DNA of 64,000 nt from Candidatus Micrarchaeota archaeon. GTDB lineage: Archaea > Micrarchaeota > Micrarchaeia > Norongarragalinales > Norongarragalinaceae. The stretch is from the NCBI GenBank assembly GCA_016207165.1, contig JACQQD010000008.1:64001-128000 (forward strand), written 5' to 3'. The number at the start of each line of letters is the position of its first letter. Within the stretch, counting starts at the first letter, position 1. The notes beneath the pieces are model-generated. The model saw nothing but the letters and a program-made list of their open reading frames with translations, had not been told where the DNA came from and did not search any database. Below are positions 20,939 through 61,160 of this stretch, piece after piece. The position numbers were made by a program, and so were the translations under genes.

Positions 20939-23900
20939 TTAGGCTTGCACTTGTTGGGGTTGGATTTGAGGCGTGTCGGCGAATCCTTGGGGTCCGCCGA
21001 GTTGTTGTTGGTTGTAGTAGCCTTGCGCGAATCCGCAGCCGATTCCGCTGAGCGCGGCGTAGGGGCCCAAGTCCTTCATGAGGGTGGAAATCAAGAAGCT
21101 GTTGCCCAGCTCGATGGCGGCGTTCTTGGAAAACGGCGAGCAGTCCGGTGACAATCCCAGGTGGATGATTTTGGTGAACTGGCGTCCGTTGGGAAACATT
21201 TCGATGCAGGCCGGTTTTTGTTGGCAGAACGCTTTGCATCCCTTAAGTTCGCCTTTGAGTTCGTCCAGTTTGTCGTTGGCTTCCGTCCATTGGTCGTTCA
21301 AATCACCAATCGGTGAACTATCTTGAGCCCCAGTTGTCTGTGGGAGTTTTTCCTTGAGCGCGTCGGCTTCTTTTTGCGCTTCCTGGATTTGTTTGCTGAT
21401 TTTGTCGTAATCCGAATAGCACGTGAATTGCGAGAATTGGGGTCTTAGTCCTGGCGGGATTTCGAACAAGGGGTACTGCATGGCGTTGCACTTCTGTTTG
21501 GTGGCTTTGAGTTGGGATTCCAGGTTCTTCAAGTCGGCCCGCGCCTTTTCCGTGGCTTTTTTGGCGTTGGTACATGCTGCTGCGGTTGGGTCCGATCCGC
21601 ATGCCGTTGTTTGAGTAGCCTCTAATTTTGGGATTTCGACGGTTTTCTTTTGCTTGATTTGAGTGTCCAAGTCGATGACTTTTTTTCCGAGGGACTCGCA
21701 TTGGGCTTTGAAGATGGGTGCTTGGATGAATAACGCGAACTGGATTTGGGGTTGGGTGTGTTGGTCGTTGGCTTGGTTCTGGCTGGGAAGCACGGGGTTG
21801 GTGGTGGCGACGATCACGGGTCCTTGCGCGTGTAGGAAGCCGCAGAGCGGAATCTGGTTTTGCGGTTGGTCCAAGTTGTCGTGAAGTTCCAGGGTGCTTG
21901 CCGTGTACTGGAAGTTTTGTCCGTCCGACGTGGTGGCCTGTACCAGGAACACGGCTGGGTCGCCAGCTCGGCAGCCCGTCGAGCGCTTGACTTCAAAGCC
22001 GGCGGCCTCCAATGCTTTGTCGGCGTCTTCGGTCAGCTGCATGACGGTGGAGAACGTGAATGGGTCTGCGGCAATGCGGCGCTCTTCCGCGAAATTCAGT
22101 TGGCTGGCGGGCGCGGTCTGGGCGGAGGAAACCGTGAGGGTGACTTCGGCGTAGCGGTTGGCGGTGGTGGCTTCATGGTGGACGCTTTGCACGTTGATGA
22201 CCAAGCCGCTGGTTGTTTTTTGTTCTCCGGCGAACGCTTCCACGGCGTCCACCACGGCGCCTTGCGCGTTTTTCACGTCGAAAAAAGCCTTGGTTCGTCC
22301 GCTAACTGTCTCGATTGCCGTCAATTGGATCTTGAATCCGTTGGCCGCGGTTTTTTCGTCGTTGATGTGCATGGCGTCGGCGCTTGGGGACGCGGTTGGG
22401 TTAGGGGAGGCCGATGCCGTGGGGCTTGGGCTGGCACTGGGTGTGGTGGACGCGCCGGGGCTTGGACTTGCCGAGGCGGTGGGGGACGCTGTAGGCGTGG
22501 GGTTGGGCGTTGTCGTGGGCATGGCGTTTGAACCGCGGCGGAATACGGTGGCTTGAGCGGTTTTTTGGGCTTCTTGTTTGAAGGCGGAAATGGCTTGGAT
22601 GGCGGCGGTGCCAGTGCACCAGCCTTGGGCGCAGGACATGTAGTCGGATGCGCTTGAAACGCGGCTTCCAAGCGTGCCAATGCCTTCAAAGTAGGCGGGC
22701 CCGTTTTCGTACGTCCACTCGCCTACAACGGTTTCTCCCTCCAACAGCGTCAAGGTTCCCGGTCCTTTCCAGGACAACGCGGTGGCGGCGTGGTCCGACA
22801 GGGTAATGGTGCCGGAAGCGCCAAGCGGCGTGAGGGTGCGGAGGCCTTGCTGTTTTTGGTTGACGACGTACAGCAATTTCGCGGTGCCTTCGCCTTCATC
22901 GAGTTTTTGGGGAGCGGCCGTCAAGGAATTGACTTGGGCGACGTGGATGCGGATGGGCACTTCTTTTTGGGCTTGGACTCCGGAGCAGAGCGCTTGCAAA
23001 ACGAGTTTGGCTTGCGGGTCTTGTTGGAGTTTGACTTGGTTTCCTTCGACAAAGGAGGGACATGACGCGGAAAAATCCTTGGTTGAAAACGTCAGGCTTT
23101 CCCGGCTGACTTGGTAGCAGGACGATTGGCTGGACTGGATTTTAAATCCGATGGTGCACGACGCGTCGTTGAAGTTCAGGGGCACGGCGTCCTTGGGGTA
23201 GATGGCGTCGACTTCCAGGACGATTTCCGGTGCGTCCACCTCGATTTGTCCGGTGGCTGGATTGAAGGAAATGCCGACTTTCGGCGTGTATTGGTGGCCG
23301 GATGGCAACGGGTTTGGCGTGCCGGGCGGTGGCGTGGGCGTTGGAGTTCCGGTTCCTCCGTTGCCTCCTCCGTTTCCACCGCCTATGCTTCCAGCGACCA
23401 GCGGCAACTTGATTTCATAGGTTTTTGGGTAGCACGTCTGGCCGGCGGGGTCAAGCGGATCGCGGGCGTAAACGCTGCCCGCGTTGGTGTGCGTCGCGTA
23501 GTACAAGGACAGCGCTTGGTTGGTGGACGCGCCTTCGCGTACGCGGACGACAAACGAGACTAGCCGTACGGCGGGCTCGTCGTAGTCCAAGGCCACCCAC
23601 TTGTAGCCTTGCAGGCCGGAAGTGAATTCGGGTTGCAGGTCTGCGCACGAGGTGGAGGGGTTGTACTCCGTGCTTTTTTGGGCGGCGTCGGCGGTGGAAT
23701 GCTCGATGATGGCGACATCGTCGCCGTCCACCGATGACTTGGATCCGACGCGCAAGTAGATGCCTTGCGCTTCGGCTTGGGCGGCGGGGGTCGCGTTGAA
23801 TTCCACGACGTACTCGCGGCCGGGTTGTAGGCTCTGTACGGGTTGGCCGGAGACGTCTTTGATTTGGATGAACTCGATTTTCGCTCCGCCGGACGCTTGG

Positions 23901-25702
23901 CTTGGCACCATGACGGCCGAGAGGTTGCGTTGTTCGTCGTCAGCCATTACCAGGCTTGCGGCAAAGACGCGGAATCCGTCGGCCGTGACGCGGAGGCGGT
24001 TTTCCACCAAGGCGGCTGTGGTAAACGAACACGCCGCGCCTTGGCACGTCTGCGTGGATTCGATGAGGTTGGAAAGCTCCATGGCCGCTGGAACGGCTTG
24101 GCTGTCCACGGCGTTACTCGTTTTCACGTTCAACGTCGCGCGGTGAATGGTCAATGTAATGGTCGCCGTGGACCCGCCTTGCTCGACGTTCGTCGTGCCG
24201 CGGACGGTTTTGGTTCCAAATTGCGCGAACACGCCCACGGTTCCCACCGGAATTTCGTCAAATCGCGCTTCGCCTTGAGAATCCGTTTCGACGTCTGCAG
24301 AAAAAACGCGGTTCTCTTTTTCCAGCCGCACGTTGGCTCCGGAAAGGCTTTCTCCGTATTCGTCTTGGACGCGGACCGTGAGCGTCGCGGCGTTAAACGG
24401 CGTGGCTTTCTCCAGTTGGATGACGTGGTTTTGTCCGGCCACCAAGTCGAACGTTTTGGCCAGGAATCCGGGCGACTGGATCCACACGTAATACGTTCCC
24501 GGACTTACCAAAAGCTCCCATTGTTCGCCGTCAAATGCCGCCAGCTCGATGGCGGGCGGCTTGAAGACTTTCGCGGAAAAGTAAAGCGCGTTTTCGTCTT
24601 TGTCCACGGCTTTAATCGTGGTTTTCTCGCCGACGGGCGCGTCCGCCCCGGCCAACGCGATCTGGAATTCCGTGAATTCCTCCACGACTTTGGCTCGGGC
24701 CGATCCGTCAAACAACGCGAATCCTTCGGCGTTGATCGTCGGGTAGACGCTGTCGCCGATGGGGGCCGTGAAAACAATGACGCCCTCCACCGTCGTTCCT
24801 TCACCCAACAGGACGGCTTGAGCGTTGTAGAGCTTGACGTTTCCGTTGACGGGGTCCGAGCCGTTGGTGATGGTGACCGTTACGATTCCTTGGTCGGAAA
24901 ACGAGGTGCCTGGCGGAGTCAGCGTCCCCGTACCCCCGCCTTGGTTTTCCCCGCCCCCGCTTCCGGGTTGCGTGAAGAGTGCCTGGTTGGTTGCCTTGAG
25001 GTATACCGTGACGTCGCCGCCGCCGCGGACGGTCCGAACATCCGGCTTGTAGCCCGTCTTGCTGATGCGCAGGTTCATGACGGCGGCTTGCGGCAAAATG
25101 GCTTCGCCTTGCGCGTTGGTGGTTTCCTGGCCGTTTTGTTTGGCGGAGTTAAAGGCGATGGACGCGGCCGAAATGGGTTGCTTGGTTTGCTCGTCTTGCA
25201 CGATAACGCGCAGGCGGCTGCGATCCAAAAATCCGATGCTGGAGCCATCCGACCCGCTTTTCAAGTCGACGCGAAGCGACGTCTGGTCCGCCAACAGCGT
25301 GCGGCGCGCGGGGTCAAAGCCTTCCTGGAGGATGCGCACCGTGTACTCGCGTTGCGGCACGTCGCTGAATACGGCGGCGCCGTTTTGCGCCCGCTTTTCG
25401 GCGATGACTTCGCCGTCCAGCAACAGTTGTATTCGGGCGCCGTCCAGGGGTTGTCCGTCGGCGTCGACTTGGATGGTGACCGTCTTGACGCCCGTAGTCT
25501 GCGTCAACACCAACAAGGCGCCCGCGGAAATCGCCACGATCAACAACAAAAACACCGGCATGGAGGGAATGCCGGCGCCTTCAATGGGCTTGACGAAGAA
25601 ATCCAGAAATGGAATGCCTTTGCGTTGAAGGCCTTCGGCAAAGTCATAGTAGTGGTCCTCAATGGAAAAGTACGCGGCCTTGAGTCCGTCAAGAAACCCC
25701 AT
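20939..25702 (-). CDS. Giant membrane-anchored surface protein (1587 aa) with carboxypeptidase-regulatory-like beta repeats, an S-layer-like domain and a C-terminal Cys/coiled-coil region
   Basis: N-terminal E..GIPS plus TM; repeated V.D..G.P..GA.V...T...G.A.F...GF/Y units; P/T/S linkers. Confidence 0.88.
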   Translation of the reverse strand: MGFLDGLKAAYFSIEDHYYDFAEGLQRKGIPFLDFFVKPIEGAGIPSMPVFLLLIVAISAGALLVLTQTTGVKTVTIQVDADGQPLDGARIQLLLDGEVIAEKRAQNGAAVFSDVPQREYTVRILQEGFDPARRTLLADQTSLRVDLKSGSDGSSIGFLDRSRLRVIVQDEQTKQPISAASIAFNSAKQNGQETTNAQGEAILPQAAVMNLRISKTGYKPDVRTVRGGGDVTVYLKATNQALFTQPGSGGGENQGGGTGTLTPPGTSFSDQGIVTVTITNGSDPVNGNVKLYNAQAVLLGEGTTVEGVIVFTAPIGDSVYPTINAEGFALFDGSARAKVVEEFTEFQIALAGADAPVGEKTTIKAVDKDENALYFSAKVFKPPAIELAAFDGEQWELLVSPGTYYVWIQSPGFLAKTFDLVAGQNHVIQLEKATPFNAATLTVRVQDEYGESLSGANVRLEKENRVFSADVETDSQGEARFDEIPVGTVGVFAQFGTKTVRGTTNVEQGGSTATITLTIHRATLNVKTSNAVDSQAVPAAMELSNLIESTQTCQGAACSFTTAALVENRLRVTADGFRVFAASLVMADDEQRNLSAVMVPSQASGGAKIEFIQIKDVSGQPVQSLQPGREYVVEFNATPAAQAEAQGIYLRVGSKSSVDGDDVAIIEHSTADAAQKSTEYNPSTSCADLQPEFTSGLQGYKWVALDYDEPAVRLVSFVVRVREGASTNQALSLYYATHTNAGSVYARDPLDPAGQTCYPKTYEIKLPLVAGSIGGGNGGGNGGTGTPTPTPPPGTPNPLPSGHQYTPKVGISFNPATGQIEVDAPEIVLEVDAIYPKDAVPLNFNDASCTIGFKIQSSQSSCYQVSRESLTFSTKDFSASCPSFVEGNQVKLQQDPQAKLVLQALCSGVQAQKEVPIRIHVAQVNSLTAAPQKLDEGEGTAKLLYVVNQKQQGLRTLTPLGASGTITLSDHAATALSWKGPGTLTLLEGETVVGEWTYENGPAYFEGIGTLGSRVSSASDYMSCAQGWCTGTAAIQAISAFKQEAQKTAQATVFRRGSNAMPTTTPNPTPTASPTASASPSPGASTTPSASPSPTASASPNPTASPSADAMHINDEKTAANGFKIQLTAIETVSGRTKAFFDVKNAQGAVVDAVEAFAGEQKTTSGLVINVQSVHHEATTANRYAEVTLTVSSAQTAPASQLNFAEERRIAADPFTFSTVMQLTEDADKALEAAGFEVKRSTGCRAGDPAVFLVQATTSDGQNFQYTASTLELHDNLDQPQNQIPLCGFLHAQGPVIVATTNPVLPSQNQANDQHTQPQIQFALFIQAPIFKAQCESLGKKVIDLDTQIKQKKTVEIPKLEATQTTACGSDPTAAACTNAKKATEKARADLKNLESQLKATKQKCNAMQYPLFEIPPGLRPQFSQFTCYSDYDKISKQIQEAQKEADALKEKLPQTTGAQDSSPIGDLNDQWTEANDKLDELKGELKGCKAFCQQKPACIEMFPNGRQFTKIIHLGLSPDCSPFSKNAAIELGNSFLISTLMKDLGPYAALSGIGCGFAQGYYNQQQLGGPQGFADTPQIQPQQVQA

Positions 25703-26224: not shown

Positions 26225-29200
26225 ATGGGCTTCTATGAGTCACTGGAGGAGGGTTATTACTCCTTCATGGATTCCCTGGAGGACCGGGGCATCAAGGTCT
26301 ACGAGTTCTTCATCAATCCCGTGGAATCCCACGGCATTCCTTCCTTTCCACTTTTTTCCCTCATTATACTGCTGTTGATCGGCGGCGCCGCGTTTTTGGC
26401 GTTCTCCGCTCTTTCCGGCGGCGGAGCGAATTTGTCGGTTCAAGTCGTGGACGCGCAAGGAAACACGTTGGACAACGTCATCGTTCAACTCGCTGTAGGC
26501 GACGACGTTCGGCGGGCAAAAACTTCGGGGGGCGTGGCCACCTTTTCAGGCATCCCGCACGGCCAAAGCCTGACGGTCAGCATCAACGAGGAGGGCTTCA
26601 AGCCGTACACCAACTCGTTTTCCATTGAAGGCGGCAAAGCCGCGGACTCCGTGCGCGTCACCTTGGAGTCCGCGAAAGCCAACGAACTGTTCTTGTTTGT
26701 TTCCGACGACTCCGGTTTTCCCGTGAGTTTAGCCGACGTCCGCTTTACGGATCCCAAGACCGGGGAACTGGTGTCCGCGCAAACCGACGCCCAAGGCAAG
26801 GTTTCCTTGCGTTATGCCTCGGCCACCGACATCCTCAACGTGCGCGTCACGCGCGATGGCTACCAGGCCACCACGCAGTCGTGTTTTGCCAGCCAGTCCT
26901 CGTGCGAAGCCATTCTGTCCTCGACTACTGGCGGAGGCGGCGGTGGAGGCGGGGGCGGAACCACGCCGCCGCGCGAGAAAGCCGGCATCCGCGTGGAAGT
27001 CTTGGACCAAAACGGCGACGGCGTGGACGCCAAAGTCGTGCTTTTCCACGGTTTTTCCGGCGAGCGCATCACTGACGCCTACACGGATTCGTTGGGTGTC
27101 GCGTTCTTCTCGGATGCCGTGGACTTGGGCACCGACGTCTACGTGTCTGTTGACCCTTCTTCCGACGGCTTCCAGTCCTTTTCTTCGGAAGTCAAGACCA
27201 CGACTCGTTCTACCGAGTTCTTCATCCAGTTGCGTCCCGCGACGCCCGTCCCTCCAGGAGGCACCAACTTCGAGCGCGTGTCGTTCAAAGTCGTGGACGC
27301 CGACAAGAAGCCTGTTGAAAATGCCTTGGTGAAGTTGTATTTTTCCCAGCCGCCCTTGCGCGCCATTGGCGAATCGTACACCGACTCTTCTGGCGACGTC
27401 GCCTTTGACGTGGCGGCCAACGTCCGCGTGTACGCCACCGTTTTTGCTTCCGGCTTTTTACCGCTTCGCTCCAAGGCGCTGACCGGAGGCGAGTTCACGC
27501 AACTGGTTTTGACTTCCCTGAAAATCGGCAACCACGGGTCCTTGACGGTCAATGTCCAGGACGAGACCGGCGCGCCAATCAGTTTCGCGTCCGTGACTCT
27601 TTCCACGCACGACGGATTCGCGTTGGGCGTGCCCAGCCAGGAAACCCTGTCCGACGGCTCCGCGCTTTTTGAAGGATTGCCCTTGGAGCGAGTAAAAGCG
27701 TTGGCGGTTTTCGGAGCCCAGAAGGGCCAAAGCGACATCGCGGAACTTGGCGTGGAACCCAAGGAAATCACGGTGGTGCTTCAACCCGCCCAGGCCTTCG
27801 TATCCGCCACGGTTTTGGATGCCGTGACCAAACAGAAAATTCCCGCGACGGTGACGGCGTACAAGTTCCAAGGCGATGGCGTGATTGGCTCCTGCCAGAC
27901 GGAAGGCAATTCCTGCGTCATTGAAGTGCCAGCGGACCGCGAAATCTATTTGGTGTCCAACGCGTCCGGTTACGGGTCCTTGACCGGAGAGGAGTTCCAG
28001 GTCTTGCCGGACCAAACCGTTTCCAAAGTCGCTTCCTTGCTTCCCAATTCCTTGACGGACGAACTGCGGATTCTGGACGTGCGGTTGGAGGATCTCAACG
28101 GCCAAAGCGTTTCCCTGTTGGACCAAAACCTCAACGTTCAAGTCAACCGCGGCGACTATTACCACGTCTTGTTGTCGGCGAACCTGCCTTCCTCTGCGCA
28201 GAAAGCCGGCACGCACATGCGCATCGGCGAATTGGCGGACGTTTCGGAAGAGAAAACGCGCATCGTGGACTACAGCAAGCCCGCCACCGCCGAAGTCGTG
28301 AAAGCAACCGGCTTTAACCCCGGGCCTTCCTGTGCCCAAGACTTGGGTGACCAAAACGGGCCGGTCAAGTGGGTGGAACACGGTTTCACGGAGTTTGGTG
28401 CCAAGACGGTGCGCGCCACCGTCTTTGTGGACCCATCGGCGACCAAAGACGACGAACTGGTTGTCTCGTACCGCGTGTACGCCAAGGCCGGCGACGTTTA
28501 CTTGCGTCAGCCCGACGACCCGCGTTATGAGGGATTGGAGAAAACCGCTTCCCTGGATTCCTGTTACGCGCAGACGGTGACGGTCCGCATCCCCATTACC
28601 GAAGGCCGCAGCACCTGCAACGATGACGCGTGTCTGTCGGCGTTGTTCTACACAGAAACCGCGTCCGCGGCCAACGGGTTGCGCGTGGACTTGGATCAAC
28701 CCTTTGCCGCCGCCGTGGGAATCCGCTCCTTTACGACCCTTGACGCGCCGTTCTTGCGCGTGAAAACCGATCCGTCGCTTCAAGTCTTGGGCTATGATTT
28801 CGGCAGCGGCTTTACCACCACTTCCGGCCAGGAAGTCACCATCCCGCTTTCATTCTTCCAGCGCACCCAAGGCAACCTCACGTTCAAGCCCATCATTCCC
28901 ACTCAGAACGCCCGCGTTTCCTTTGCATTCGGCGACGCGTCCGGCTCCATCGTCGAGGCGCAACGCTTTGTCGTGGTGCAGGGCACCGGGCAATTCAACG
29001 TGGCCGGCCAGCCCCTCGAGTTGCTGGCGCAGCAACGCAACACGTTGACCGTCAGCGTGCTTTCCCAGAACGGCCAGGCCGTCACCGACGCGAAGTTGAC
29101 GTTCAAGGAAGTCCAGGGTTCGGCGTTCAACGGTTTCCCCAACGGGCCGGAGACCTTGTTGGGCGACAATTCCGAAGGCCGCGGAAAAGACGGAACCTAT

Positions 29201-32200
29201 CGTTTTGAACAATTGCGCCCCGAATCCGTTGGATCCATCGCCGTGGACGTCGAGCGCGACGGCTTTGCACCCTCGTCATTGGATTTAGTCGTTTCCAGTG
29301 ACGAGCCGTTGTCCTTCAGCCAGGATCCGACTTTAATTGATCTTTCATGCGACGAACCCACGCGCCTCGGCGTTTCCTCGGCCATTGAATCCAAGTTGCG
29401 CGTGGCCGCCAGCTTCTCGGGGACGGCTTGCGCCAACCTCCAGGTTTTAGGTTCCGGCACCGGCGATTCGGCGTCCTTTGACGTCAAACCCGGCAAAGAC
29501 ACGACCATCATCATCGACCCGAAAATCAACGGCCAATGCTTGCTGGTCTTCAACGCGGAAACGCCATCCGGCCAGGCGCTGGGCACGCAAGAGGCCTGGC
29601 TGTCCGCGGACTGCGAAAAATTGGGTGGAGGCGACGGATCCGTCAACGCGTCCCCCACGCCTCCGGCTACTCTGCAAGGCACGTGCGCCGCCCAAGGCGG
29701 GCAATGCGTGCCCTCCGGCCAGCGCTGTCCCTCCGGGTTTGTGTCTTCCGATTACAACACCCTTCAAAGCCAGTACCCCAACCCCTACACCGGCCCCACT
29801 CCGACGCCCCAACCCGGCTCCCAGGCGGTCTGCACCGATGGCCAAACGTGTTGCAAGCCCGTGGACCAAGTATGCCAGCCGCCGATTTACAACTTCCAAA
29901 ACATTTTAGCCAAGTACCTCGGCTATTACGCCGGCGTGCAGACGCTGTCCAACTACCCGCAACAAGTCACCTCCGCTTCCGCTCCCATCCGCTTGGCGGC
30001 CACCCCCCAAGGCGTGGTGGTCACGGATCCAGGAAAGTGCCAACGCGCCGGAAACGGCTTGACGTGCACGAAACCCGTTTACGCGATTCTGCCCACCAAC
30101 GCCTTGGCTTTCTCCGTCGAAAACCAGTTGTTCGCTGATACCACCGTGCTTTTGTCCAACTCCGCGGAAACCTGTTTCTCCGTCGAGGAAGTCGGCCAGA
30201 AATCCGGGTTTTACAGCGTCTTGGGCAACGTCCGCAACCAACTGCAATCCGGCGCTTCCCTGCTCACTCGCCAGACGCGCACCTACGTGATTACGTTCCG
30301 CCCCACGCCCCAATGCGTCGCCTATTCGTTGGACGAAAACGGCGCGGCGACCCTGTCGTTGACGGAGGCCGCCAAGTCGGGTGCCCAGGTTGCGGTTCGG
30401 ACTTCATCGGGAATTGCCGGCACGCAGTTCATCTTGAACTTCCAAGTCGCGCCCAAGAAAGTGCCAGCCGACCAGTACGCCTTCATTGCCATGCCCACCG
30501 GCGAGGTGGCGGCCCGCGGCGACGCCTCGTATTCCTTCGAAGAACCCGCGGTCTTCGTCAACAACCTGCAAGCCACCGAAGGCTTGGGCGTGGACGTGTC
30601 CGGCAAATCCGTTCCTTCCAAACTCACCATCGCGCCGACGTCCTACACGCCGGCGATTTTGCGCTTCAAGAAATCCGAGGCCCCGGACGTCAACGCGGTT
30701 TTAGGCAACTCCAACACCAAAGTCAACCTCAAGTTCACGGTGGTCGACGCGCCCACTGGCCTGGACGGGTATGACGTGGTGGGCAACACTGGAGCTGTCG
30801 GCGAAGGATTCCTGCAATGCTCGCGCACCGGTTATTGCACGCCGGACCAAGTCAAAAAAGTCACCGACGCCATCCGGAATGATTTGGATGCGTTTGCCGG
30901 GGAATACGTGGCCAATGTCGACACGTTGGCCTACGAGAACGCCGTGTCCGGCACGCAACAAATCTACCAGCAAGCCTTCCAAGACGCCCTCCGCGAATAC
31001 CTGGCTTTGCGCTCCCAGTACGACGCCTGCGTGCGGTCGGGCCAGGACCCGCTTCGAGGCACCAACCAATACTGCCAGCAAAACAGCGGCCAGGCCCCCA
31101 TTTACCCGTACGCGCAGGGATTGCCTGGAGTGTACGGTCCCCAAGGCTTCTACCAGAACCCCTATTCCGGCGGCGCCGGCAGCTATCCGGGTTCTTACCC
31201 CGGCGCAGGCGTCAACCCATACCAGCAAGGCTACAACCCCTACCAATCCAACTTTTACCCCGGCCAAGGCTACTATCCTTCTTACGTATCCAACCCGCAA
31301 ACCCAGCAAAGCCTGACTGGAGCTTTCGGCGACGGATGGATGAACGCCGGCTGTAACTCCGACATCTTGAACGCCTTCCAACTCCAAGGCCAAGTGGGAT
31401 TGAACCAATTCAACCCCGTCCAACAACAATACATGCAATCCGCACGGTACTCGCAAGGCGTTTTCAGCCAACGCGAACCCGTCCTATCCAACCTCCAACC
31501 CAAAATCATCGTGCCCATCAAGGAAGCCGGGCCCCAAGGCGGAATCAAACTGTACACCTTCACCGCCGATTTAAGCAAATCCAGCCCCACCGGAGAAGGC
31601 GGCTTTACTGTCATTGACCGAATCAGCTCTGGAACCCTTCAAGCCGGCTACTTGACGCTGCCCTACCACCAGCGGCCCGCCACGGAACTGCCCTCCGGCG
31701 ATTCCGGTCAAGAAAAAATCTCCGGCTTCCCGTACCTGGAGAAAGACAAGGCGAGCACCACCTACAAACTCAAAAACTGGGGCACGACCACCAGCGTGAC
31801 GGTACCCTCCGGAACCCAGACCCACCTCGTCGTCGAGAAAACCCAGGCTCAAGCCGGTAGCCAAAGTACAGCGGGCGTCGGACCGGCTGGCGTGGCTCCA
31901 GGTCAACCCGGTGCAACGGGTTCCGGAGTCACCGGAAACGGCGGAGCGTCGGCAACCGGAAAGCCAGTCATCGTTGTATACGACGGTGAAATCGACGTGG
32001 AGCCCTCCGAATTATCGCGTGCAATTCGCTTCAGCATCCAAACTCCTACGAGTTCTACTTCCATTGAGGATGCGTTTGACGTGCTGTATTTGAACATTTA
32101 CAATCCAAAGACTGGAACGCAAAAAGCCGCGACCGCGCGAATATGCAAGACCAACACGCAATCCTACAACCTTGGCTGCGACTTGTCTGTTCAAGCTTAC

Positions 32201-46403: not shown

Positions 46404-46406
46404 AGC

Positions 46407-49914: not shown

Positions 49915-49935
49915 GGCAACCCACCTCCACATCCA

Positions 49936-51027: not shown

Positions 51028-51035
51028 GGCATTTT

Positions 51036-51050: not shown

Positions 51051-51097
51051 TCTTAACCTTTTTGGTTTCCGGTCCTATTACTCCGTTGCGGATTCTT

Positions 51098-51205: not shown

Positions 51206-51298
51206 TTTTCAAGCGTTTTTCTTTGGCTTTTTGTTGCTACTGCGGGGTGTACTCGCGGCCCGCAGTGTTTAAATAACCGGCTTGTTCTACTAAGAGTC

Positions 51299-52735: not shown

Positions 52736-52772
52736 GTATCTTTTGTAACGAGGGGTTTGGAGGTTGTCGGGT

Positions 52773-53657
52773 ATGACTTGGAAAACGTTTGGAGTATTGG
52801 GTTTGGCTGCCGCACTTTTCTTGACGTTGGGAGCCTTTGTCGTAGGCGCGCCGGGAGGGACGCCCGCGGGCGGTCCTGCGACTCCGAAAATTATCTACTG
52901 TGCGTACAAAAGCCAGTCTTGGCTTCTTGACTCCTCTTTGTTGCAGAAGTATCCAGACGCCTGGTTGGTGGCGAACAACTACATTCGCTATCTGATGAAA
53001 GAAGGTGTCATTGCCGACGGTTCGGTGGGCACTTCGACGTCCGGCGGCGTGTACCATAAGGCTGATTACAACCCGGCTTTTGAAAACCTGTATATTGATT
53101 TGTGTTACCGTTCGGGCGTGACTCAAAATAAACTTAGCCTTATTTCCAGTGAGGAATATGCTGAGCGGGCTTTGGCTGACTTGAAGTCCTTTGCCAAGTC
53201 GAACGTTCGGTCGCAAGCGCTTGATGACGCTTTGACGGATTTCCGCGTATGGGTCAACGATAATTTGGGAAAGGCCAAGACCAAAGTGGTTCGGGGGGCG
53301 CGGGATTTCTGGAATGATTGGTTGGATGCCCAAAAGCGGCTTGCCACTGAGACGAACGAGCAGGCTAAGCGCGTGTTGACCTTGGCTGTCCAAGTCAATA
53401 AAGAAATTGGTGCCAACGAGATGCTGTCTGATAAAGAACAAACCGAAAAGAAGACGCGTGTTGTCGTTATTACCGGTTTGATGACTGAACTTATTAAGAG
53501 CAACCCAGGCATCACGGCTTCAGTAAAGGGCAAGTCGGACAAAGAAATCAAGGACATTTTCTACCGATATTTGCGGGATGAATCGGCCCCGGTAGATTCT
53601 GAAACCGTAAAGTCGCAGTTGCTCGCCCGTCTTACGGGCGGCCTAGTAGCGACTTAG
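52773..53657 (+). CDS. Secreted alpha-helical hypothetical protein
   Basis: SD GGAGG; signal peptide; lower GC than its flanks. Confidence 0.78.
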   Translation: MTWKTFGVLGLAAALFLTLGAFVVGAPGGTPAGGPATPKIIYCAYKSQSWLLDSSLLQKYPDAWLVANNYIRYLMKEGVIADGSVGTSTSGGVYHKADYNPAFENLYIDLCYRSGVTQNKLSLISSEEYAERALADLKSFAKSNVRSQALDDALTDFRVWVNDNLGKAKTKVVRGARDFWNDWLDAQKRLATETNEQAKRVLTLAVQVNKEIGANEMLSDKEQTEKKTRVVVITGLMTELIKSNPGITASVKGKSDKEIKDIFYRYLRDESAPVDSETVKSQLLARLTGGLVAT

Positions 53658-53659
53658 CC

Positions 53660-53692
53660 TTTTCTTTCTTTTTTTCTTTTTCCTTCTTTTTC
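53660..53692 (+). terminator. Archaeal-type poly-pyrimidine terminator
   Basis: About 33-nt T/C-only tract directly after the stop codon. Confidence 0.6.
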
Positions 53693-53813
53693 TGATTGGG
53701 TGCGAGCGTAGGCTTTGACTGGTTTCGGTTTGGGGGTTTGAACGGCAGTGGGGGGCGGGAATGCTTGCCGCGTTTGGAACTGTTTTTATTCAGGTTGCGC
53801 CTACTTTTAGCAC

Positions 53814-55574
53814 ATGTCGGACGCCTCTTTTTCGGTTGCATCGGACGGCGAAAAACCGTCGTTGCCGTTAATTGGTTTGGCGGTGTTGGTGGTGTTGGCT
53901 GGCGCCGTAATCTTTTTGTCGCAAAATTCCACCACCCCGTTTCGTGACTTGGGTTCTCCGGCGCCCCCGCAAGCCGCTTCGGTTTCTGGCGTTGTTTCTT
54001 CCACGGAGTCTTTTTCGCTTTCCGGTGCCCAAGTCCGAGTCGATTCCGAGGTCTTCGTGGTTGGCGAACGCATGACGGAAAAAGTGGCTCTTGAAAGTTC
54101 CAGTGCTTGGACGGGTTACTTCGTGGAAGTGATTCCCAAAGAGTTTGCGGCTTCGGCTTCAAAATTGGATTTGAATGGATATTCGGACGTCCAAGTTCTG
54201 GAGGATGACCCCGTGATTGCCGTTCCCATCGTGCTTTCGCCTGGTAGCCCGGTTTCGTTGTCGAAAACCGGTTCCAGCACCAATCTCCGCTTGCTTCACT
54301 TCCTGGTTTCGGACGACGCGCTGTCGTCGGATGCGTCCGAGCGGAAAGAACAGCTCAGGCAAATTGCGGCGGCGTTTGGCGCGTTGGACTTCGAGCAGTT
54401 GCTGGTGTTCACCGGAAGTGACATTGAGGCGTTTCAAGGGGATGTTTCGGGTTTGTTGAGCGATTCGTCGAAGACTTTTCCGGAGCGCGTGGCCGCGTTG
54501 AAAGGGAAAGTCTCGGCGCAGACGTCGTCGGAGAACGTGGAAGCTGCTTTGAAGAGAAGCGAGAACAAGATTTACTTGGAACTCAATCCGTATGCGCCTT
54601 CTTCGACGTACCGGTTGCCCGTGGTTTCGACGCGAGGCTCTGTCGAATTGACCCGCAATGCGTTTGCGCCTTTGTTGAAAGTGTCTGGGTTGGACGTGCC
54701 CCGGCTTGAGACGAACGTCGGTTTTTCCCAAAGCGTTGAGACCGATCCGTGGCTTGTCGAGGTGGCCGTCGACGCGTCTCGGGTTGAAACTTCAGGGGGC
54801 AAACTGGTTCTGGACGGCGAGCCATTGATCAACGCATTGGGGTCTTTGGATGTGCAATTCACCCAGGAATTGGACGTCAAGCAAAGCATTCCGTTTTTGG
54901 TTGAGTTCACGCAGCCGCCGGTTGCCGATTACTTGGCGTTTTATGTTCCCGCCATTTATTACGGGTCCACTGACGTGCCCTTCTTGATGAGAAACGACGC
55001 ATCCATGGATTTCCAAGTCAGCGTGTGCGGTCAAGAACAAATTTTGTCTGCTGAAACTTGGCAAGTTCTTTACGTGTCTCCGGAAAAAATCGACGACTGC
55101 CAAATCACGCAGGGAACGGAAACCCTGGTCTTGGGCGGAAAGACGGGGTTGACGGCGATGCCGGTTCGCGTGGATTTGTCCAAAGAGGATTATTCGCCGG
55201 ATGTCAAGGCGGCTTTGTCTGGGAATGGATACTTGTTCCACCGGTATGCCGTGCCGCTTTCCGAGTCGCCGTCGGATTACTGCTCCAACCGCTTGTGTAC
55301 CTGCGATGCGGCCGTTGAATCGACCAAGAATTTGGTTCTTCGGGCAACGGAATTGAACCGCCTTTACCAGGCAACGCATGCTTCGACTTTGGTGCTTTTG
55401 GATTCGACGGAAGCCGGTTGTGAATACGAATTTTCGGAGGATGGGCGACTTTCGCTTGAACCCGGTCTAAATGTCGTCCAAGCCACTTTTTCCGAATCCA
55501 ATGCGCACGACCAGCCATTCACCGTCGTGGTTTCAACTGAAAAAATAAAGGGCGGGTTCTTCGGGGCGGACTAA
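53814..55574 (+). CDS. Membrane-anchored surface protein with C-terminal Cys module
   Basis: TM; PFRDLG, IPKEFAASAS.L, QVLEDDP and YCSNRLCTC motifs. Confidence 0.82.
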   Translation: MSDASFSVASDGEKPSLPLIGLAVLVVLAGAVIFLSQNSTTPFRDLGSPAPPQAASVSGVVSSTESFSLSGAQVRVDSEVFVVGERMTEKVALESSSAWTGYFVEVIPKEFAASASKLDLNGYSDVQVLEDDPVIAVPIVLSPGSPVSLSKTGSSTNLRLLHFLVSDDALSSDASERKEQLRQIAAAFGALDFEQLLVFTGSDIEAFQGDVSGLLSDSSKTFPERVAALKGKVSAQTSSENVEAALKRSENKIYLELNPYAPSSTYRLPVVSTRGSVELTRNAFAPLLKVSGLDVPRLETNVGFSQSVETDPWLVEVAVDASRVETSGGKLVLDGEPLINALGSLDVQFTQELDVKQSIPFLVEFTQPPVADYLAFYVPAIYYGSTDVPFLMRNDASMDFQVSVCGQEQILSAETWQVLYVSPEKIDDCQITQGTETLVLGGKTGLTAMPVRVDLSKEDYSPDVKAALSGNGYLFHRYAVPLSESPSDYCSNRLCTCDAAVESTKNLVLRATELNRLYQATHASTLVLLDSTEAGCEYEFSEDGRLSLEPGLNVVQATFSESNAHDQPFTVVVSTEKIKGGFFGAD

Positions 55575-55577
55575 TCC

Positions 55578-58500
55578 ATGCGTTTTTTTGTCTTCATTGT
55601 TTTCCTGGTGTTGGCGGGTTTGGCTTCATCCGCCGCCTTTGACTTGGCCAACCAACCCAAAGTCAGCGTATACATCGGCTCGGATGCGTCCGTTCCCCAT
55701 GCTTCCGGCGGGGCTTCGTACGCGTTTCGTTTGGCCGGCCCCGCCGTGGTCGGACCCAAGGGGATTGAGGCCAAAATCCAGGCCACGCGTTCCGGCCAAG
55801 CCGAGTGTCCCGGTACAATCAAGGTCAACACGCAGGAGCAATACGCGTGCAACACGGTGTGCATTCGGTTGATTGGCTACCGGACGCAAGCCGCCATTGA
55901 TGCGGACAGCGCTTCCGGTCAACAACCTCTTTCCCAAGAGGACGCCATCGGCGAGCACGCTTTCATGCAAATAGGTTTGAAGTCATCGGATGGCTCGTGT
56001 AATGTCGCGCCGACGGCCGCGGATGTCCAGGCCCTCGCGCAATCGTCGTCGAAAATGACTCCTGAAGAGCAGGCCCGCGCAAGCCAATCCATTTCCGGCG
56101 GCTATCACCGCTTCCTGAAAGACGTTTCAATCGATGTGGCGTTGCTGGCTGGCATCCGCTTCAAGCGGGCGACGCCGCAATACTTGGAGCACCCCCGTGA
56201 ATTGACGGACTTGATGGCCAGCTTACACAAAGTGGAATACCTCGTCTTTCATGCCCCGACGTTTTTGGGCGTCCGCGATACCGTGGAACAATCCCAACTC
56301 GCGATTCGCGCGAATTCCGTGGAGTTGGCGTCAAGCGCCATTGCCTCCTGCGGCGCTCATCCCGCCTTTTTGGAGGAGTTTTCCGTGAATGGTTATGGGC
56401 CCAGTTCACTGTTTTCCGTTGGCCCCTCCGATGAATGGATTCGCTCGTCGTACAAGACGGCGGCTTCCTTGGATGAAGCCAAACAATTTCTTTCCTGCAT
56501 CGGGCAAATCAAGGGCGAAAAGGGGTACTTCTTTTTCGACCGGAAAATTGACCCCAAGACCATCACGCGCGCCTTGGAGGATCCAGGGTACACGTTTTTG
56601 ACGGAGTACGACAAGTCCCGCCGGCAGGAAGGCAACCTGGATGTGACGCAAGCGGACCGCGTGGTTTTCGCCTACGAATTTGGCAAGTACCTGTATACGC
56701 AGAAAGAGGACGCCGACGCCATCAACGTGCTTTCCGCCGCGATTCTGGAAGCCGAGCGGTTGCGCATTCCCAACGTGGTTCACCCTCAAAGCGGTTTGGG
56801 ACTCCAGAAAGACGCGTTTGACACCATCAACGCCGTTTTGGCGCGGCAGGGCCGGGAACCCATGGCGACGCTGGGCGGTTGCCTCAACGGCTTCTTGAAT
56901 CCGCTTATCATCCTAAAACCTCTTCAGTTGCTCAAGATAGGTGCCAAGACCGGCGCCGTCATGTCTGCGGGCGGCCGCGTCATCCACTTGGGCTTTGCTT
57001 TACAAGGCGGTCAGCAACTCATTGGCGCGGCCCAAACCGCGCAGGAGTCGGCTTTGGACTCCACCATTTCGGGTGTGTGCGGGACGGTCATGTTTTTTGG
57101 CGGCCTGAAAGCGGGTCTGACGCGAGCCCCCGCGGCGTCTACGGAAATGGTTCGAACGCCTGAGACAGGCAAATGGGTGTCGCGTCCGGTCATTGGAGGC
57201 TCCAAGGCGGCGTCGGCGCGTGCCTTGGTCTTGAACAAGGAATTGGCGGATACCCCGGTTGAGTTGGTTGTACAACGCTTCACCAAGTTTTCAAGCCAGC
57301 TTAAACCCGGTGAATCCGCTGGAGAGTTTTTTGTGCGGTTGACGGTGAAAGGCAAAGAATTGACTATTCGCGTCACGCCCGAAAACCATCGAGCCGTTTT
57401 GGCGGACGTGTTGCACATAAAGGCGACGCTGGCCATGGAAAAAGCAGACGCCGCCCAGTTTTCTCCCAGTTCCATCAAGGAGTTCCAGCAGGCGCTCTCG
57501 GAATTGTCGAAAGTGGATTCGGAGAAGGCATCATTCTACAACGAGTTCAATTTCCAGTTGAATGAACTGCTGAACGCCAAATCGAAGGAGGCCAAGCAGT
57601 CCATCCAGGAAAAACTCATCGGTTTGGTCTTCCAGCTATCCAAGCCTGAAAATAATCCCGCCAAGCAGCGCATCACGTTCTTGCAAGCGTTGCCTTCCGG
57701 CAAAGCCCAGACTCTGGATGGCTTGACCCCTGCCCAACCCCCTGGAACCGCTCAGCCCAGCGATCGCCGGACCCTCACGGAGCGCTTGCAAGCCGCGACG
57801 GAACTCTTCAAGAAGGCGAAAGAAAAGTTCGGCCGCAGCCTTTCGCGCGTGAAACAGTTCTTTTCGTTCAAGGACGGCCGGAGGATTGAAGTTCCGGAAG
57901 AGGCGTCCAGCCAAATCGCGGACGCCCACGTGGCGGCGTCGGCGACCGGCGAAGCCCAACAAGTCGTTGTTGAGGTTTTGGTGAACGGAAAGAAGCAGAA
58001 CATGCCGGTGTTTGTTCGCCCTGGCGGAAAATTTTTGTCGATTGAGGAAATCAAGCAAGTGGCCAAAGACGGGAAAACCACGATTGCGGGAGTAGTTCGA
58101 CTCGGGGAATTGGTCGTTTTTGATACCCGCCCCCAGAACCTGCGCTTTTTGCAAACTATTCGCCTCAATGACCTGCTTTCCGACTCCAGGCCCCTGCCTG
58201 CTCTTCGTGAATCGGTTACGGCGTTGGCGGATGCCGAAACCCTGTCAACTGATCCTTCAAGCGCCGGCAAGTCAACTCGTCCAGGTGACGCCGTCCAATT
58301 GCCTGAAACCCGCTGGAAGGATGCGTTGACGCGTCTGGGGTTAAGGCGAAATGGAAAATATGATGCCTACTACTTGGTTGAAGGTGCGGCGTTGCGGAAT
58401 GGGGTTCCCCTCCGTTTCGAAGTGACTGGATCCGACAACCACGTCGGTTTTCTGGTTTTGAAAATCATCCGGAACAAAATTCCGGAAAGCATTCGCGACG

Positions 58501-61160
58501 CGACCATTGAAACGCTCAAGAAGGAGGGTTTCACGGAGCACTCCGACGGCACCGTGTTCTCGAAGGAAGTCGACGTCCGGGGCCAGCAGGTGCTCTTGGT
58601 TCCAAAGCCGGGAGCCACAGGCTTGGCCACCCCGATCTTGGATACCGTGGCACCGGAGTTCCAGGCCTTGATTAAAGAACTTTTGCCAAACGAAGGCCGC
58701 GCCCAACGCGTTGCAACCGTGGAGGAAGCCGAAGCCCTGCTTGGGGAAAAAGGTTTGCTGGCGGATCCAACCGCCAAGACCCAGGAAGGCGGCAACCCAT
58801 TTGACCCCGGCAAACTTATTGAAGATCAAGCCGCCAAGGCCGAGCCCAATGCTCGTGAAGTGGCCGAGGAACAACGCCGGCTTGCGGAAGAGCAATCCAA
58901 AGTCGAACCGGTGCGCGCTCCAGTGCAAACCCAGGATGGGGTGTGGGAGGTTTCGGAAGGCCGTGGGTTGACTGTCGGTCGACTGACCGCCAACCGAGTC
59001 GTTCTTCCATCCGAGTCCATTGCCCGCCGGCAAGGAACCTTTTCCGCGGATTCAAAGGACGGCGTCTTTTACGTCAACACTGGTTCAACGAGCGGATACA
59101 GGGTTATTCGGGGCCGCAACGAGCAGGAGTATCCGGGGAGCCACACGGAACCCGTTTCGCTTAAGGCGGGGGACTCCGTTGTATTCGCGGACGGTTCCCG
59201 CGTCGTCGTGGACTCTTATTCGCCGAAATCCGGTTCCGGGCCTGCGGTGGCCCGCTTCCGCGTTGAACCCGCGGAAACGTCTACGTCGCCCACCCTGGAA
59301 ACTCTTCCGAGGACGAAAGGTGGTTCGTATTCGATTACGGGTTGCGCCGTTTGCCTGACGCAAAATCCGTTGGCCAGGGATTTCCTGGTTGACGAGGGCC
59401 AGAAGGCTTCGGTCGGACGCCAGGAAGGCAACACGATCATGTTTGAAAATGCGCATGTTAGCCGCGAGCAAGGAAGGTTCGACGTGGGCGCGCTGGGCGT
59501 TACTTACACGAACTTGGGCAGGTCGAACTTCTTTGCCGCTGTAATCGGGGGCCGCCGCCATGATTTTCCTCCGACGCACGGCGAGCCCATTTTGCTTGGC
59601 CCGTTTGATTCCATTCTTTACTTGAACGGCGAAAAAATCGTCGGCAGCATTACCGTTCAAGAGTTCGCGAAAGCCGCGTCGACGGGCAGTTCCCGGCTTT
59701 TGTTGCGCGTGGAGCGCGCTGGCTTCACTTCAACTCCGGAAACAGAGGGGGGGCCCGCAGTGACTCCGGAAAAAGCCGAGGCCAACCGCGAGGCGTTTGA
59801 AAAGCCACCGGCGCGTGCGTCCGGCGCCAAGCCCAAACTTGAAGTGAAAAAAGCCGGAGTGGCCGAACAGGCCAAAGTGGGGGAAACGGTATCCCAAGAT
59901 TCTCTTTTGAGCATAGAACAAGGTGACCGGTCGGTGGATGTCGTCGCAGATGGCGTAGGCGGCGCGCTTGGAGGCAGAGTCGCGTCGCAAGCCTTTGTAA
60001 ATGGGATTAATACCCGCTTTCCAGAAATGACGGATCAACTTTCGTTGGAAGAAGCCTTTAATGGAGCTGCAGGAGACACCGTCAGCGCGTTACGCCCTGT
60101 TTTAGAAGCAAACAAGTTTGACCGTGAGACTGGCGAGCCGTTGAATCCGCAGGGCGGCACCACGGCGTTGGTTCTTCTGATCAACGGACGTAAAGCGCAC
60201 CTCGCGGGCATCGGGGATGGTGCGTTGTTTATGATTCGCGGCGGTAATATTGAACTGTTATCGGAAATACACAACGACGCGTACGGCGCCCGCGGTCAGG
60301 TTGCGGGTTTGAGACCTGAGGACGCTTTCGTTGACAGAACCGAAGCCGGCGTAAATACGATGCGTAACTCCATTACCCGATCGATTGACGCCGGGATATA
60401 CGACGGGGAGTTCGAATCCTCTCAAGGCATCCCTCGGGGTCAGCATTTCTCTCGTGAATTCTCCGTACAAGACGGCGACCGGTTTATTCTCGTTTCAGAT
60501 GGCGTGGCGGATGTGGTCACGCCGACCGAGATTCGCGAGATTGGCAGACGGGGTACGCCGGAACAAGCCGCCCAAGCAATCTTGGCCTTGGCCCGACAGC
60601 GCATCTCCGGCCGGCATGAAGGCAACTTTGAAGGTCGCAAAATTCCCATCGACGGCAAGAACGACGACATTTCCGTCATCGTGCGGGATGTCGGCGAGCG
60701 GCCGGCTTCTGAGGAATCCTCTTCGGAGCCTTCGCGGTCCGAACCTGCGGTGGCGCGTTCGGCTCCTCCGGCAAGCATGGATTTGGAGCCGTTTACCCGG
60801 CTGATGCCTGCTGGGCCGACTTATTCCATTCGCATTGGCCGCGACGCCGTAAATGATGTGGTGTTGCCCAATGACTTCGTCAGCCGCTATCAGGGGGTGT
60901 TGCATTCGGATTCCTCCGGTCGGTTGTTTTACGAAAACGAAGGCGGATCCAATTCGTTTTGGCTTGGTCGTGGAGGCAGTTTGACGGAGTTGTCGGGTCG
61001 CCGAACCATTGAACTGCGTGTTTTAGACTCGATTTTCTTTGCCGATGGAAGCCGAGTGTACTTCCGTCACCTTAACCCCGCTTACCCCGGTTCGCTGCCA
61101 AGCGCGGTTTTCGACTTTTTCCCGAAATCCGTGGATGCCCCCGAATTTCAACCGACGTGA
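55578..61160 (+). CDS. Signal-peptide protein (1860 aa) with a hydrophobic segment, three FHA domains and a PP2C/PPM phosphatase
   Basis: FHA motifs GR...N......I/V(A/S)R.QG at about 58977, 59415 and 60837; PP2C motifs VADGVGG...G..AS, GGTT, GIGDG, LVSDGV.D and DDISVI. Confidence 0.88.
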   Translation: MRFFVFIVFLVLAGLASSAAFDLANQPKVSVYIGSDASVPHASGGASYAFRLAGPAVVGPKGIEAKIQATRSGQAECPGTIKVNTQEQYACNTVCIRLIGYRTQAAIDADSASGQQPLSQEDAIGEHAFMQIGLKSSDGSCNVAPTAADVQALAQSSSKMTPEEQARASQSISGGYHRFLKDVSIDVALLAGIRFKRATPQYLEHPRELTDLMASLHKVEYLVFHAPTFLGVRDTVEQSQLAIRANSVELASSAIASCGAHPAFLEEFSVNGYGPSSLFSVGPSDEWIRSSYKTAASLDEAKQFLSCIGQIKGEKGYFFFDRKIDPKTITRALEDPGYTFLTEYDKSRRQEGNLDVTQADRVVFAYEFGKYLYTQKEDADAINVLSAAILEAERLRIPNVVHPQSGLGLQKDAFDTINAVLARQGREPMATLGGCLNGFLNPLIILKPLQLLKIGAKTGAVMSAGGRVIHLGFALQGGQQLIGAAQTAQESALDSTISGVCGTVMFFGGLKAGLTRAPAASTEMVRTPETGKWVSRPVIGGSKAASARALVLNKELADTPVELVVQRFTKFSSQLKPGESAGEFFVRLTVKGKELTIRVTPENHRAVLADVLHIKATLAMEKADAAQFSPSSIKEFQQALSELSKVDSEKASFYNEFNFQLNELLNAKSKEAKQSIQEKLIGLVFQLSKPENNPAKQRITFLQALPSGKAQTLDGLTPAQPPGTAQPSDRRTLTERLQAATELFKKAKEKFGRSLSRVKQFFSFKDGRRIEVPEEASSQIADAHVAASATGEAQQVVVEVLVNGKKQNMPVFVRPGGKFLSIEEIKQVAKDGKTTIAGVVRLGELVVFDTRPQNLRFLQTIRLNDLLSDSRPLPALRESVTALADAETLSTDPSSAGKSTRPGDAVQLPETRWKDALTRLGLRRNGKYDAYYLVEGAALRNGVPLRFEVTGSDNHVGFLVLKIIRNKIPESIRDATIETLKKEGFTEHSDGTVFSKEVDVRGQQVLLVPKPGATGLATPILDTVAPEFQALIKELLPNEGRAQRVATVEEAEALLGEKGLLADPTAKTQEGGNPFDPGKLIEDQAAKAEPNAREVAEEQRRLAEEQSKVEPVRAPVQTQDGVWEVSEGRGLTVGRLTANRVVLPSESIARRQGTFSADSKDGVFYVNTGSTSGYRVIRGRNEQEYPGSHTEPVSLKAGDSVVFADGSRVVVDSYSPKSGSGPAVARFRVEPAETSTSPTLETLPRTKGGSYSITGCAVCLTQNPLARDFLVDEGQKASVGRQEGNTIMFENAHVSREQGRFDVGALGVTYTNLGRSNFFAAVIGGRRHDFPPTHGEPILLGPFDSILYLNGEKIVGSITVQEFAKAASTGSSRLLLRVERAGFTSTPETEGGPAVTPEKAEANREAFEKPPARASGAKPKLEVKKAGVAEQAKVGETVSQDSLLSIEQGDRSVDVVADGVGGALGGRVASQAFVNGINTRFPEMTDQLSLEEAFNGAAGDTVSALRPVLEANKFDRETGEPLNPQGGTTALVLLINGRKAHLAGIGDGALFMIRGGNIELLSEIHNDAYGARGQVAGLRPEDAFVDRTEAGVNTMRNSITRSIDAGIYDGEFESSQGIPRGQHFSREFSVQDGDRFILVSDGVADVVTPTEIREIGRRGTPEQAAQAILALARQRISGRHEGNFEGRKIPIDGKNDDISVIVRDVGERPASEESSSEPSRSEPAVARSAPPASMDLEPFTRLMPAGPTYSIRIGRDAVNDVVLPNDFVSRYQGVLHSDSSGRLFYENEGGSNSFWLGRGGSLTELSGRRTIELRVLDSIFFADGSRVYFRHLNPAYPGSLPSAVFDFFPKSVDAPEFQPT

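Follow-up and report, generated by a model that had tools for sequence, protein, structure and literature searches.

The nanohaloarchaeal 'SPEARE' giants are proteins of 8,880-9,409 amino acids (aa) that are encoded by one gene and carry Ig-like domains and a VirB4/TraG-like ATPase domain, and a second gene for such an ATPase adjoins, according to the available part of the report on them (PMC10266531). In Apilactobacillus kunkeei, the tandem array Giant1-5 makes up 6% of a genome of 1.5 Mb and encodes proteins of 3,000-8,000 aa with an N-terminal beta-solenoid binding domain, as described in the part of the source available (PMC12863079). Here we analyzed a stretch of 64,000 nucleotides (the window) from a Candidatus Micrarchaeota archaeon of the order Norongarragalinales, which corresponds to positions 64,001 to 128,000 on the forward strand of contig JACQQD010000008.1 (assembly GCA_016207165.1). 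The interval 20939..61160 of the window contains ten large open reading frames (ORFs), A to J, and three of them, A, B and D, encode giant proteins (Table 1). The original prediction was that this interval is a single locus of ~40 kb encoding one surface machine for host attachment and delivery. The giant genes are real and conserved over 20.9-47.0 kb, but the part at 47-61 kb is unrelated and strain-specific. It is fairly probable that A, B and D are order-specific, stalked giants of the cell surface that serve in contact or adhesion, and that F to J form an island separate from them.

Architecture and distribution of the giants

A, B and D are paralogous giants. BLASTP aligned A with B at 28% identity over ~790 aa and B with D at 23% identity over ~1080 aa, and the paralogy spans the first 600-1100 residues. 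The three ORFs lie where the original prediction had placed them, and the features that it named, an anchor ending in GIPS, a transmembrane (TM) helix and beta-sandwich domains behind it, are all present. At the N-terminus of each giant is a conserved module of ~45 residues that ends in GIPS. In A and B, this module has two G-[ILV]-P motifs, and D has a shorter form with the same EEKGIPS ending. A hydrophobic stretch of 19 aa (Kyte-Doolittle 2.5-3.0) follows directly after the module in all three proteins, and it is the sole strong TM-like stretch of each giant. Judged from the length and hydrophobicity of this helix alone, the N-terminal module would be retained in the membrane. We infer a topology with the N-terminus inside and the bulk of the protein outside the cell, because a single long hydrophobic helix is followed by Ig-like and Cys-rich domains with conserved Cys pairs.

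Behind the helix, the Pfam matches of A, B and D are to beta-sandwich families only, namely CarboxypepD_reg, Big_1, macroglobulin MG3/MG4 and SpaA. The row of CarboxypepD_reg, Big_1 and macroglobulin type was matched at 8.6e-22 in A (the value for CarboxypepD_reg), 9.2e-24 in B and 9.2e-19 in D. Pfam also found beta-sandwich families in 22 of 23 relatives, which were sampled from those of the 150 best hits that are 1400 aa or longer (90 proteins). A is laid out as anchor, beta-sandwich stalk, Cys-rich region, Cys-loop with helix, PT-rich linker and coiled-coil-like C-terminus. B has the same plan with an additional low-complexity stretch rich in Q, G and Y. The giants contain 22 to 30 Cys each (22 in A), and their Cys-rich regions matched no recognised family. 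The NCBIfam scan of A, B and D gave no match. No enzyme, toxin, effector or ATPase family was found in A, B, C or D with Pfam (E <= 0.01) and NCBIfam, and in the 23 relatives Pfam found no ATPase family at E <= 1e-5 and no enzyme, toxin or secretion family. The effector-like cargo that had been expected of the locus was therefore not recovered in these proteins. Swappable distal domains had been proposed as well, and they are seen solely as the last ~250 aa of B, which are not kept within the genus. By eye, residues ~660-730 of D have a cupredoxin-like look, for which Pfam gave no support at E <= 0.01. Two further giant paralogues of 2284 and 2114 aa are encoded on other contigs of the genome, which is 1.27 Mb in size and 90% complete, and the five paralogues together make up 2.7% of it.

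The anchor profile was built from alignment A1 (25 sequences, among them A, B and D; 86 positions). It matched 48 of 48 genomes of Norongarragalinales from ten families and none of 352 genomes from the phylum's other families. Genomes of the order have 1 to 8 matches each, and the window's genome has five. A degenerate DNA pattern for P-I-E-x-R-G-I-P-S-F-P was found at 25 places among 185,579 species genomes (one genome each), and all 25 were in records titled Candidatus Micrarchaeota, Micrarchaeia or Norongarragalinales. Searched against 1.84 billion cluster representatives, the anchor profile had 899 matches at E <= 1e-3, of which 475 reached E <= 1e-10. Every one of the 150 matches listed has the module inside its first ~125 residues. 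As defined for the family, the module has two G-[ILV]-P motifs and a GIPS or GIPP ending. The median length of the matches listed is 1681 aa and the longest has 3689 aa, and the numerous short ones may be fragments. Residues 1-800 of B were matched in 41 of 41 relatives from 11 families, the window's genome counted. These profile and pattern searches point to a genuine family of some size that, at the sensitivity reached, is confined to one order.

In some ORFs of 70-260 aa there is nothing but the anchor module, as in one of 171 aa (L020 2011-2256) in G007, a genome of the window's own family; such ORFs may be either genuine short proteins or pieces cut off where a contig ends. A word-index protein search with residues 1-160 of A returned only A itself, the index being too coarse for the giant family. 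In the protein atlas, the C-terminal part of D reached at most 0.79, and the anchor of A had no usable match. We found no description of the giant family in the papers on the order that were searched or among those listed by a full-text search, supplements aside. Four groundwater DNA runs from one study contain D, and one of these may be the genome's own source.

Gene order, junction element and partner protein

In G001, a genome of the same genus, the gene order is the S-layer gene, FKBP, A, B, a Cys-rich protein with the N-terminus of C, D and E. In three other families (G030, G032 and G036/G040), the gene for P470, a membrane protein of 400-500 aa, is followed by one to three B-like giants and then by one D-like giant. 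The arrays of G030 and G032 end with a small gene, and the fetched stretch of G036/G040 stops inside the D gene. G007 has B-like, D-like and E-like genes, and its P470 gene is elsewhere on the contig. The domain that follows the Cys-loop of D (the post-Cys domain, see below) was found in 43 of 61 order genomes, the window's included, and in 19 of the 22 high-quality ones. There is one match to this domain per genome, except in G006, which has two pieces within one ORF. The ORFs carrying it range from 775 to 5182 aa, and the short ones are on short contigs. E was found in 42 and P470 in 56 of the 61 genomes. Both D and E are present in 32 other genomes, on the same contig in 27 and on different contigs in 5. 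In all 27 same-contig genomes, E is downstream of D on the same strand, at most 7 kb from the start of the D domain. P470 was matched in 45 of 48 order genomes versus 1 of 352 outside, and the outside match is borderline (E = 1e-3, 108-aa ORF). Of the 26 genomes that show P470 and a giant on the same contig, 21 have a giant start no more than 2 kb downstream of P470. The remaining 5 have their next listed giant match 6.6 to 18 kb away, and intervening giants are possibly unlisted. In the window's genome, P470 is encoded on another contig, directly before an extra giant paralogue. The original prediction had proposed to look for co-occurrence and synteny across archaea, and both were found for the giants, E and P470. 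P470 and two of its orthologues matched no Pfam family at E <= 0.05, Pilin_N included, so the idea that it is a pilin has no Pfam support. Its N-terminus may resemble the class III signal peptides of archaeal type IV pilin-like proteins.

The giants evolve faster than housekeeping genes. They are 44-46% identical to their orthologues in the same genus (45% for A). The corresponding values in the first 11.5 kb of the window are 66-78% for five housekeeping enzymes and 57% for a DUF2797 protein, and those for the S-layer protein and FKBP are 58% and 66%. In the window's genus, the S_layer_C gene is ~3 kb upstream of the giant array. C, the Cys-repeat protein already noticed in the original prediction, is located between B and D only in this genus. 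It has no Pfam or NCBIfam match, and its positional homologue in G001 has 985 aa and a common N-terminus (phmmer 1.6e-08). Gene A is inverted relative to B in the window and in G009, and the two genes are on the same strand in G001 and G002. The last ~40 residues of A recur downstream of the A orthologue in G002 (L029, G002:C40, ~7200-9250), with 66% identity over 38 aa and 60% over 25 aa.

At the junction to the distal part, the giants have a Cys-loop of the pattern C-x4-5-aromatic-C. The original prediction was a module of two Cys, a T and a helix common to A, B, D and I. The strings are at the positions given, and the orthologue sets of A, B and D keep both Cys, an aromatic residue directly ahead of the second one and the amphipathic helix that follows, but the T is not conserved and I has no support. 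In 28 further D-type proteins, C-x4-[FY]-C is followed by a conserved Q/A/F pattern. A 324-position profile of the D domain was searched against ~10,000 ORFs, and its best non-D matches were the Cys-loops of A and of a B-type protein, at E 0.38 each, which is not significant alone. A 46-column profile made from D-type proteins only was searched against 199 giants and gave 8 matches at an independent E-value (i-E) below 0.01 and 16 at E < 1, with 0 in the reversed set. Seven of the 8 are presumed to be the seven D-type proteins and one is presumed to be non-D. Four profile rounds gathered 20 segments, A-type and B-type ones included, in an iteration that favours its own recruits. In a 10-protein set, the Cys-loop of the window's B had an i-E of 0.004, which is weak support, and the motif of I had an i-E of 2.6, which is none. 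A literal CxxxxCT-type regular expression occurred 4 times versus 0.1 expected, and 0 of 2000 shuffles reached 4; this test is weak because the pattern was chosen post hoc. We conclude from the profile comparisons that a junction element of ~35 residues appears to be common to the A, B and D types, and that the parts beyond the junction differ. The Cys match in I is probably due to chance.

The post-Cys domain of D-type proteins can be aligned over ~330 residues, and six positions in it are invariant, among them three Cys (alignment A3, 29 sequences). The best Pfam match in the 29 members was at E 0.0098, and there was no PDB sequence match at E <= 1. The AlphaFold2 model from the 29 sequences had a mean predicted local distance difference test score (pLDDT) of 76.5, and ~90 for the first alpha/beta part of ~165 residues. 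With this model, Foldseek found nothing at E <= 0.001, and the best VIA-align match (Z 5.7) covered helical hairpins only, so that the first ~165 residues were barely tested. It does not follow from this lack of matches to a predicted model that the domain has a new fold. The weakly hydrophobic Gly/Ala-rich segments of D (Kyte-Doolittle 1.5-1.8) are helices in the AlphaFold2 model. Of 7 D-type proteins, 5 have such segments at similar places, L059 lacks them, and the only one of L063 is nearer the C-terminus.

E is the PsbP-like protein of the original prediction, and it is recognisable as such by its fold. Its AlphaFold2 model had a pLDDT of 90.3, and Foldseek returned 39 matches at E <= 0.001, the best at 2.9e-6. 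The top matches were CyanoP (2lnj), DcrB (6e8a) and PsbP (4rth/2vu4), with TM-scores of 0.43-0.68. Other fold matches were mycobacterial Apa, MTC28 and LpqN, Tsi3, and the chaperones EagT6 and SciW of the type VI secretion system (T6SS). The E-values of the fold relatives reported range from 2.9e-6 to 7.7e-3 at Foldseek probabilities of 0.99-1.00. The Eag chaperone structures 6xrf_A and 6xrb_A matched the E model at E 2.3e-4 and 1.5e-3, which is a resemblance of fold only. In sequence searches, the window's E had no Pfam family at E <= 0.1. Among 23 relatives of E, 5 matched PsbP_2 (PF18933, best 6e-05) and 4 matched PsbP (PF01789, best 0.0068), and the E profile matched PsbP 2xb3 in the PDB at E 0.67. 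According to its predicted model, E has a PsbP-like alpha-beta-alpha sandwich fold. E may act outside the cell, because it has its own N-terminal TM helix and two Cys that are invariant in its domain. A complex prediction for two distal pieces of D with E scored 0.00, which speaks neither for nor against binding.

The stretch from F to J and other features

By sequence comparison, F to J are a separate strain-specific island and not part of the giant system. No tblastn or phmmer match to F, G, H, I or J was found in the syntenic 60 kb of G001. Residues 1-1400 of J and the protein I were each found in 0 of 60 other order genomes, and they had no match among 5.8 billion clustered proteins in a word-based search of limited sensitivity. 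Proteins of this stretch had been proposed as subunits of the surface machine, an assignment that these results do not support. Other observations on this stretch held. G and I are paralogous (36% over 137 aa, BLASTP), and J is an FHA/PP2C protein, in which Pfam matched PP2C_2 at 50.8 bits (cut-off 24) and FHA at 54.4 bits (cut-off 20.7) in two stretches, and NCBIfam matched only PP2C. No hydrolase family other than this PP2C was found with Pfam or NCBIfam in any ORF, which leaves the proposed membrane hydrolase without a counterpart. Residues 1129-1223 of J resemble residues 1749-1842, hence J has at least two FHA-like domains. A Gly-rich hydrophobic stretch at ~430-520 of J could separate ~430 N-terminal residues outside the cell from a cytoplasmic PP2C/FHA part. 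F may not be a real gene, and a 277-aa ORF overlaps it on the opposite strand.

Four small minus-strand ORFs are located between E and G at 49.1-51.0 kb. The three copies of a 105-nt direct repeat bracket two cassettes of these small ORFs. The second and third copies are 82% and 73% identical to the first, there are no other copies in the genome, and the repeat had no Rfam match at E <= 0.1. The idea that the small ORFs encode a toxin-antitoxin system was dropped, since only sub-threshold matches to RHH_1 (18.0 bits, cut-off 20.5) and HTH_7 (20.4 bits, cut-off 23.8) were found. The two larger ORFs of this set matched no family.

Table 1. Positions of the genes, protein parts and repeats discussed in the text, numbered along the window
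Feature	Coordinates	Strand	Description
Giant A	20939..25702	(-)	1587 aa ORF
N-terminal anchor module of A	25499..25702	(-)	residues 1-68; alignment A1 and profile matches
Cys-loop CAQGWC and amphipathic helix of A	22547..22633	(-)	residues 1024-1052
Giant B	26225..32521	(+)	2098 aa ORF
Cys-loop CSRTGYC and helix of B	30818..30904	(+)	residues 1532-1560
Giant D	36573..46403	(+)	3276 aa ORF
Cys-loop and post-Cys domain of D	43155..44168	(+)	residues 2195-2532
Weakly hydrophobic Gly/Ala-rich helices of D	44022..44492	(+)	residues ~2484-2640
C-terminal domain of D	45660..46400	(+)	residues ~3030-3276; conserved in 7 aligned D-type proteins
E	46407..46970	(+)	187 aa; N-terminal TM helix and PsbP/Mog1p/DcrB-like domain
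C	32555..35005	(+)	816 aa; Cys-rich (40 Cys), signal-anchor
S-layer protein	14881-17835		984 aa; S_layer_C 1.1e-16
AbiEii-like nucleotidyltransferase gene, weak	35114-35740		3.6e-4; interrupts the array between C and D
AbiEii-like nucleotidyltransferase gene, strong	61291-62040		5.6e-31
Island F-J	47027..61160	(+)	strain-specific, outside the conserved set
F	47027-48625	(+)	532 aa; orphan, rich in Pro/Arg/His
G	51299-52735	(+)	478 aa
H	52764-53657	(+)	297 aa
I	53814-55574	(+)	586 aa
J	55578-61160	(+)	1860 aa; PP2C and FHA
105-nt direct repeat, three copies	48964-49068, 50010-50114, 51088-51192		spaced ~1.05 kb

Possible functions and comparison with known systems

Contact or adhesion at the cell surface is the most likely job of the giants, and a structural role in the envelope is the nearest rival. 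In a contact role, the N-terminal module would remain membrane-bound, serving as a signal-anchor whose short tail is in the cytoplasm, and the remainder of the giant would be exported and stabilised by disulfides. The row of beta-sandwiches would be a stalk that lifts the distal domains past the S-layer, and the distal domains might touch other cells, surfaces or polymers. E might bind or hold D as an extracellular partner. Several points weigh against this reading. An order-wide, orthologous family with a single-copy D would fit a core component of the envelope equally well. The distal domains of the giants matched no known family or fold, and the assembly of A, B and D with each other, with E or with P470 is only a proposal made from sequence. 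Signal peptidase could also cut at the small residues that come after the helix, such as SQA/PS in D, and the module would then be a long cleaved signal peptide. There is no RNA run among the listed sequencing runs that contain D. A role in contact with a host is further weakened because Norongarragalinales are argued to be potentially host-independent and to have the most 'free-living associated' genes among Micrarchaeota, in the part of the source available (PMC12892359). The window encodes IMPDH, GMP synthase and CTP synthase.

The giants might instead be a core envelope scaffold with no role in cell contact, such as pillars fixed in the membrane that keep the S-layer spaced or tethered. 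We consider this rather unlikely. The presence of giants in every order genome searched, their distinct orthologous types with D in single copy, the lack of any recognised binding or enzyme domain and the proximity of an S_layer_C gene to the array in the window's genus are what a scaffold would lead us to expect. However, the S-layer gene adjoins the array in that genus only, and other genes flank the array in G007 and G030. The other orders of Micrarchaeota do without the family, and the low identity within the genus together with the variable end of B is commoner for exposed interaction surfaces. The substrate or metal capture that would result if the giants displayed binding or redox modules for groundwater nutrients outside the cell seems highly improbable. 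Distal Cupredoxin_1, or MopE copper-binding motifs with fn3, occur in 2 of the 23 relatives, and the runs that contain D are groundwater metagenomes, but such domains are rare, none was found in A, B or D at E <= 0.01, and the regions read around the arrays show no linked genes for transporters or enzymes.

One host-attachment and delivery machine, in which the distal parts of the giants and the proteins G, H, I and J would be passed to a host as exchangeable effectors or cargo, is also improbable. F to J are absent from the relatives searched, Pfam and NCBIfam found no effector, toxin, ATPase or secretion family, the Cys motif of I is unsupported, and the lineage, argued in the available part of PMC12892359 to be the least host-dependent of its phylum, has no known host. 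On the other side, the giants show co-occurrence and synteny with E and P470, the Cys-loop junction is common to the giant types, distal D has its weakly hydrophobic Gly/Ala-rich helices, and E has a fold also found in PsbP, in DcrB and in the T6SS Eag chaperones, the last of which hold the transmembrane helices of effectors. A further reading is that the giants, E and P470 make up an order-specific device for contact between cells. A and B would provide stalks and adhesins, and the Gly/Ala-rich helices of D would be held by an Eag-like E until they are inserted into the membrane of another cell. We regard this device as a slim possibility. If it exists, it would be a previously unseen archaeal way of tapping or bridging a partner, in a lineage that is argued to be free-living. 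The order is presented as the likeliest host-free Micrarchaeota in the available part of PMC12892359, yet every genome searched spends a few per cent of ~1 Mb on private, fast-evolving giants with conserved partner genes, and such investment in surface proteins is otherwise discussed for host-attached DPANN. The giant family is a sequence marker for the order and a target for asking what the cells touch.

The giants of Norongarragalinales are similar to SPEARE, so far as the available description of the latter goes, in being very large surface proteins of small-genome DPANN with an N-terminal export signal, rows of Ig-like domains and a proposed role in cell contact. They differ in that they have 1,587-3,276 aa and are arrayed, with 3 to 8 paralogues in each genome, and in that no ATPase family was found in A to E (E <= 0.01) or in the 23 relatives (E <= 1e-5). 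Three traits are peculiar to this order: its N-terminal module, its Cys-loop and the pairing of D with E. Consecutive paralogous genes for extracellular giants, a sizeable share of a small genome and restriction to one lineage are common to this array and to Giant1-5 as the latter is described in the part available. Giant1-5 are bacterial, whereas the proteins analyzed here are archaeal, have an N-terminal membrane module and a beta-sandwich stalk and show no sequence relation to them.

In bacteria, large autotransporters with an extended signal peptide region and Gram-positive proteins with YSIRK signals have a conserved segment before the export helix, and these signals are cleaved. The giants likewise have an extra conserved segment before the hydrophobic helix of a very large surface protein. 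No sequence relation to these signals is known, and the helix of the giants, with at least 19 residues and strong hydrophobicity, points to retention instead of cleavage. The model of E is like the proteins of the PsbP/Mog1p/DcrB fold, whose members typically bind proteins. Eag chaperones act in the cytoplasm. Unlike them, E has its own predicted TM helix and two invariant Cys, and the likeness of its model to Eag is one of fold only. Giant surface proteins are already a known theme in DPANN, and those of this order form a family apart, marked by an anchor, a junction element and a D-E pair of their own.

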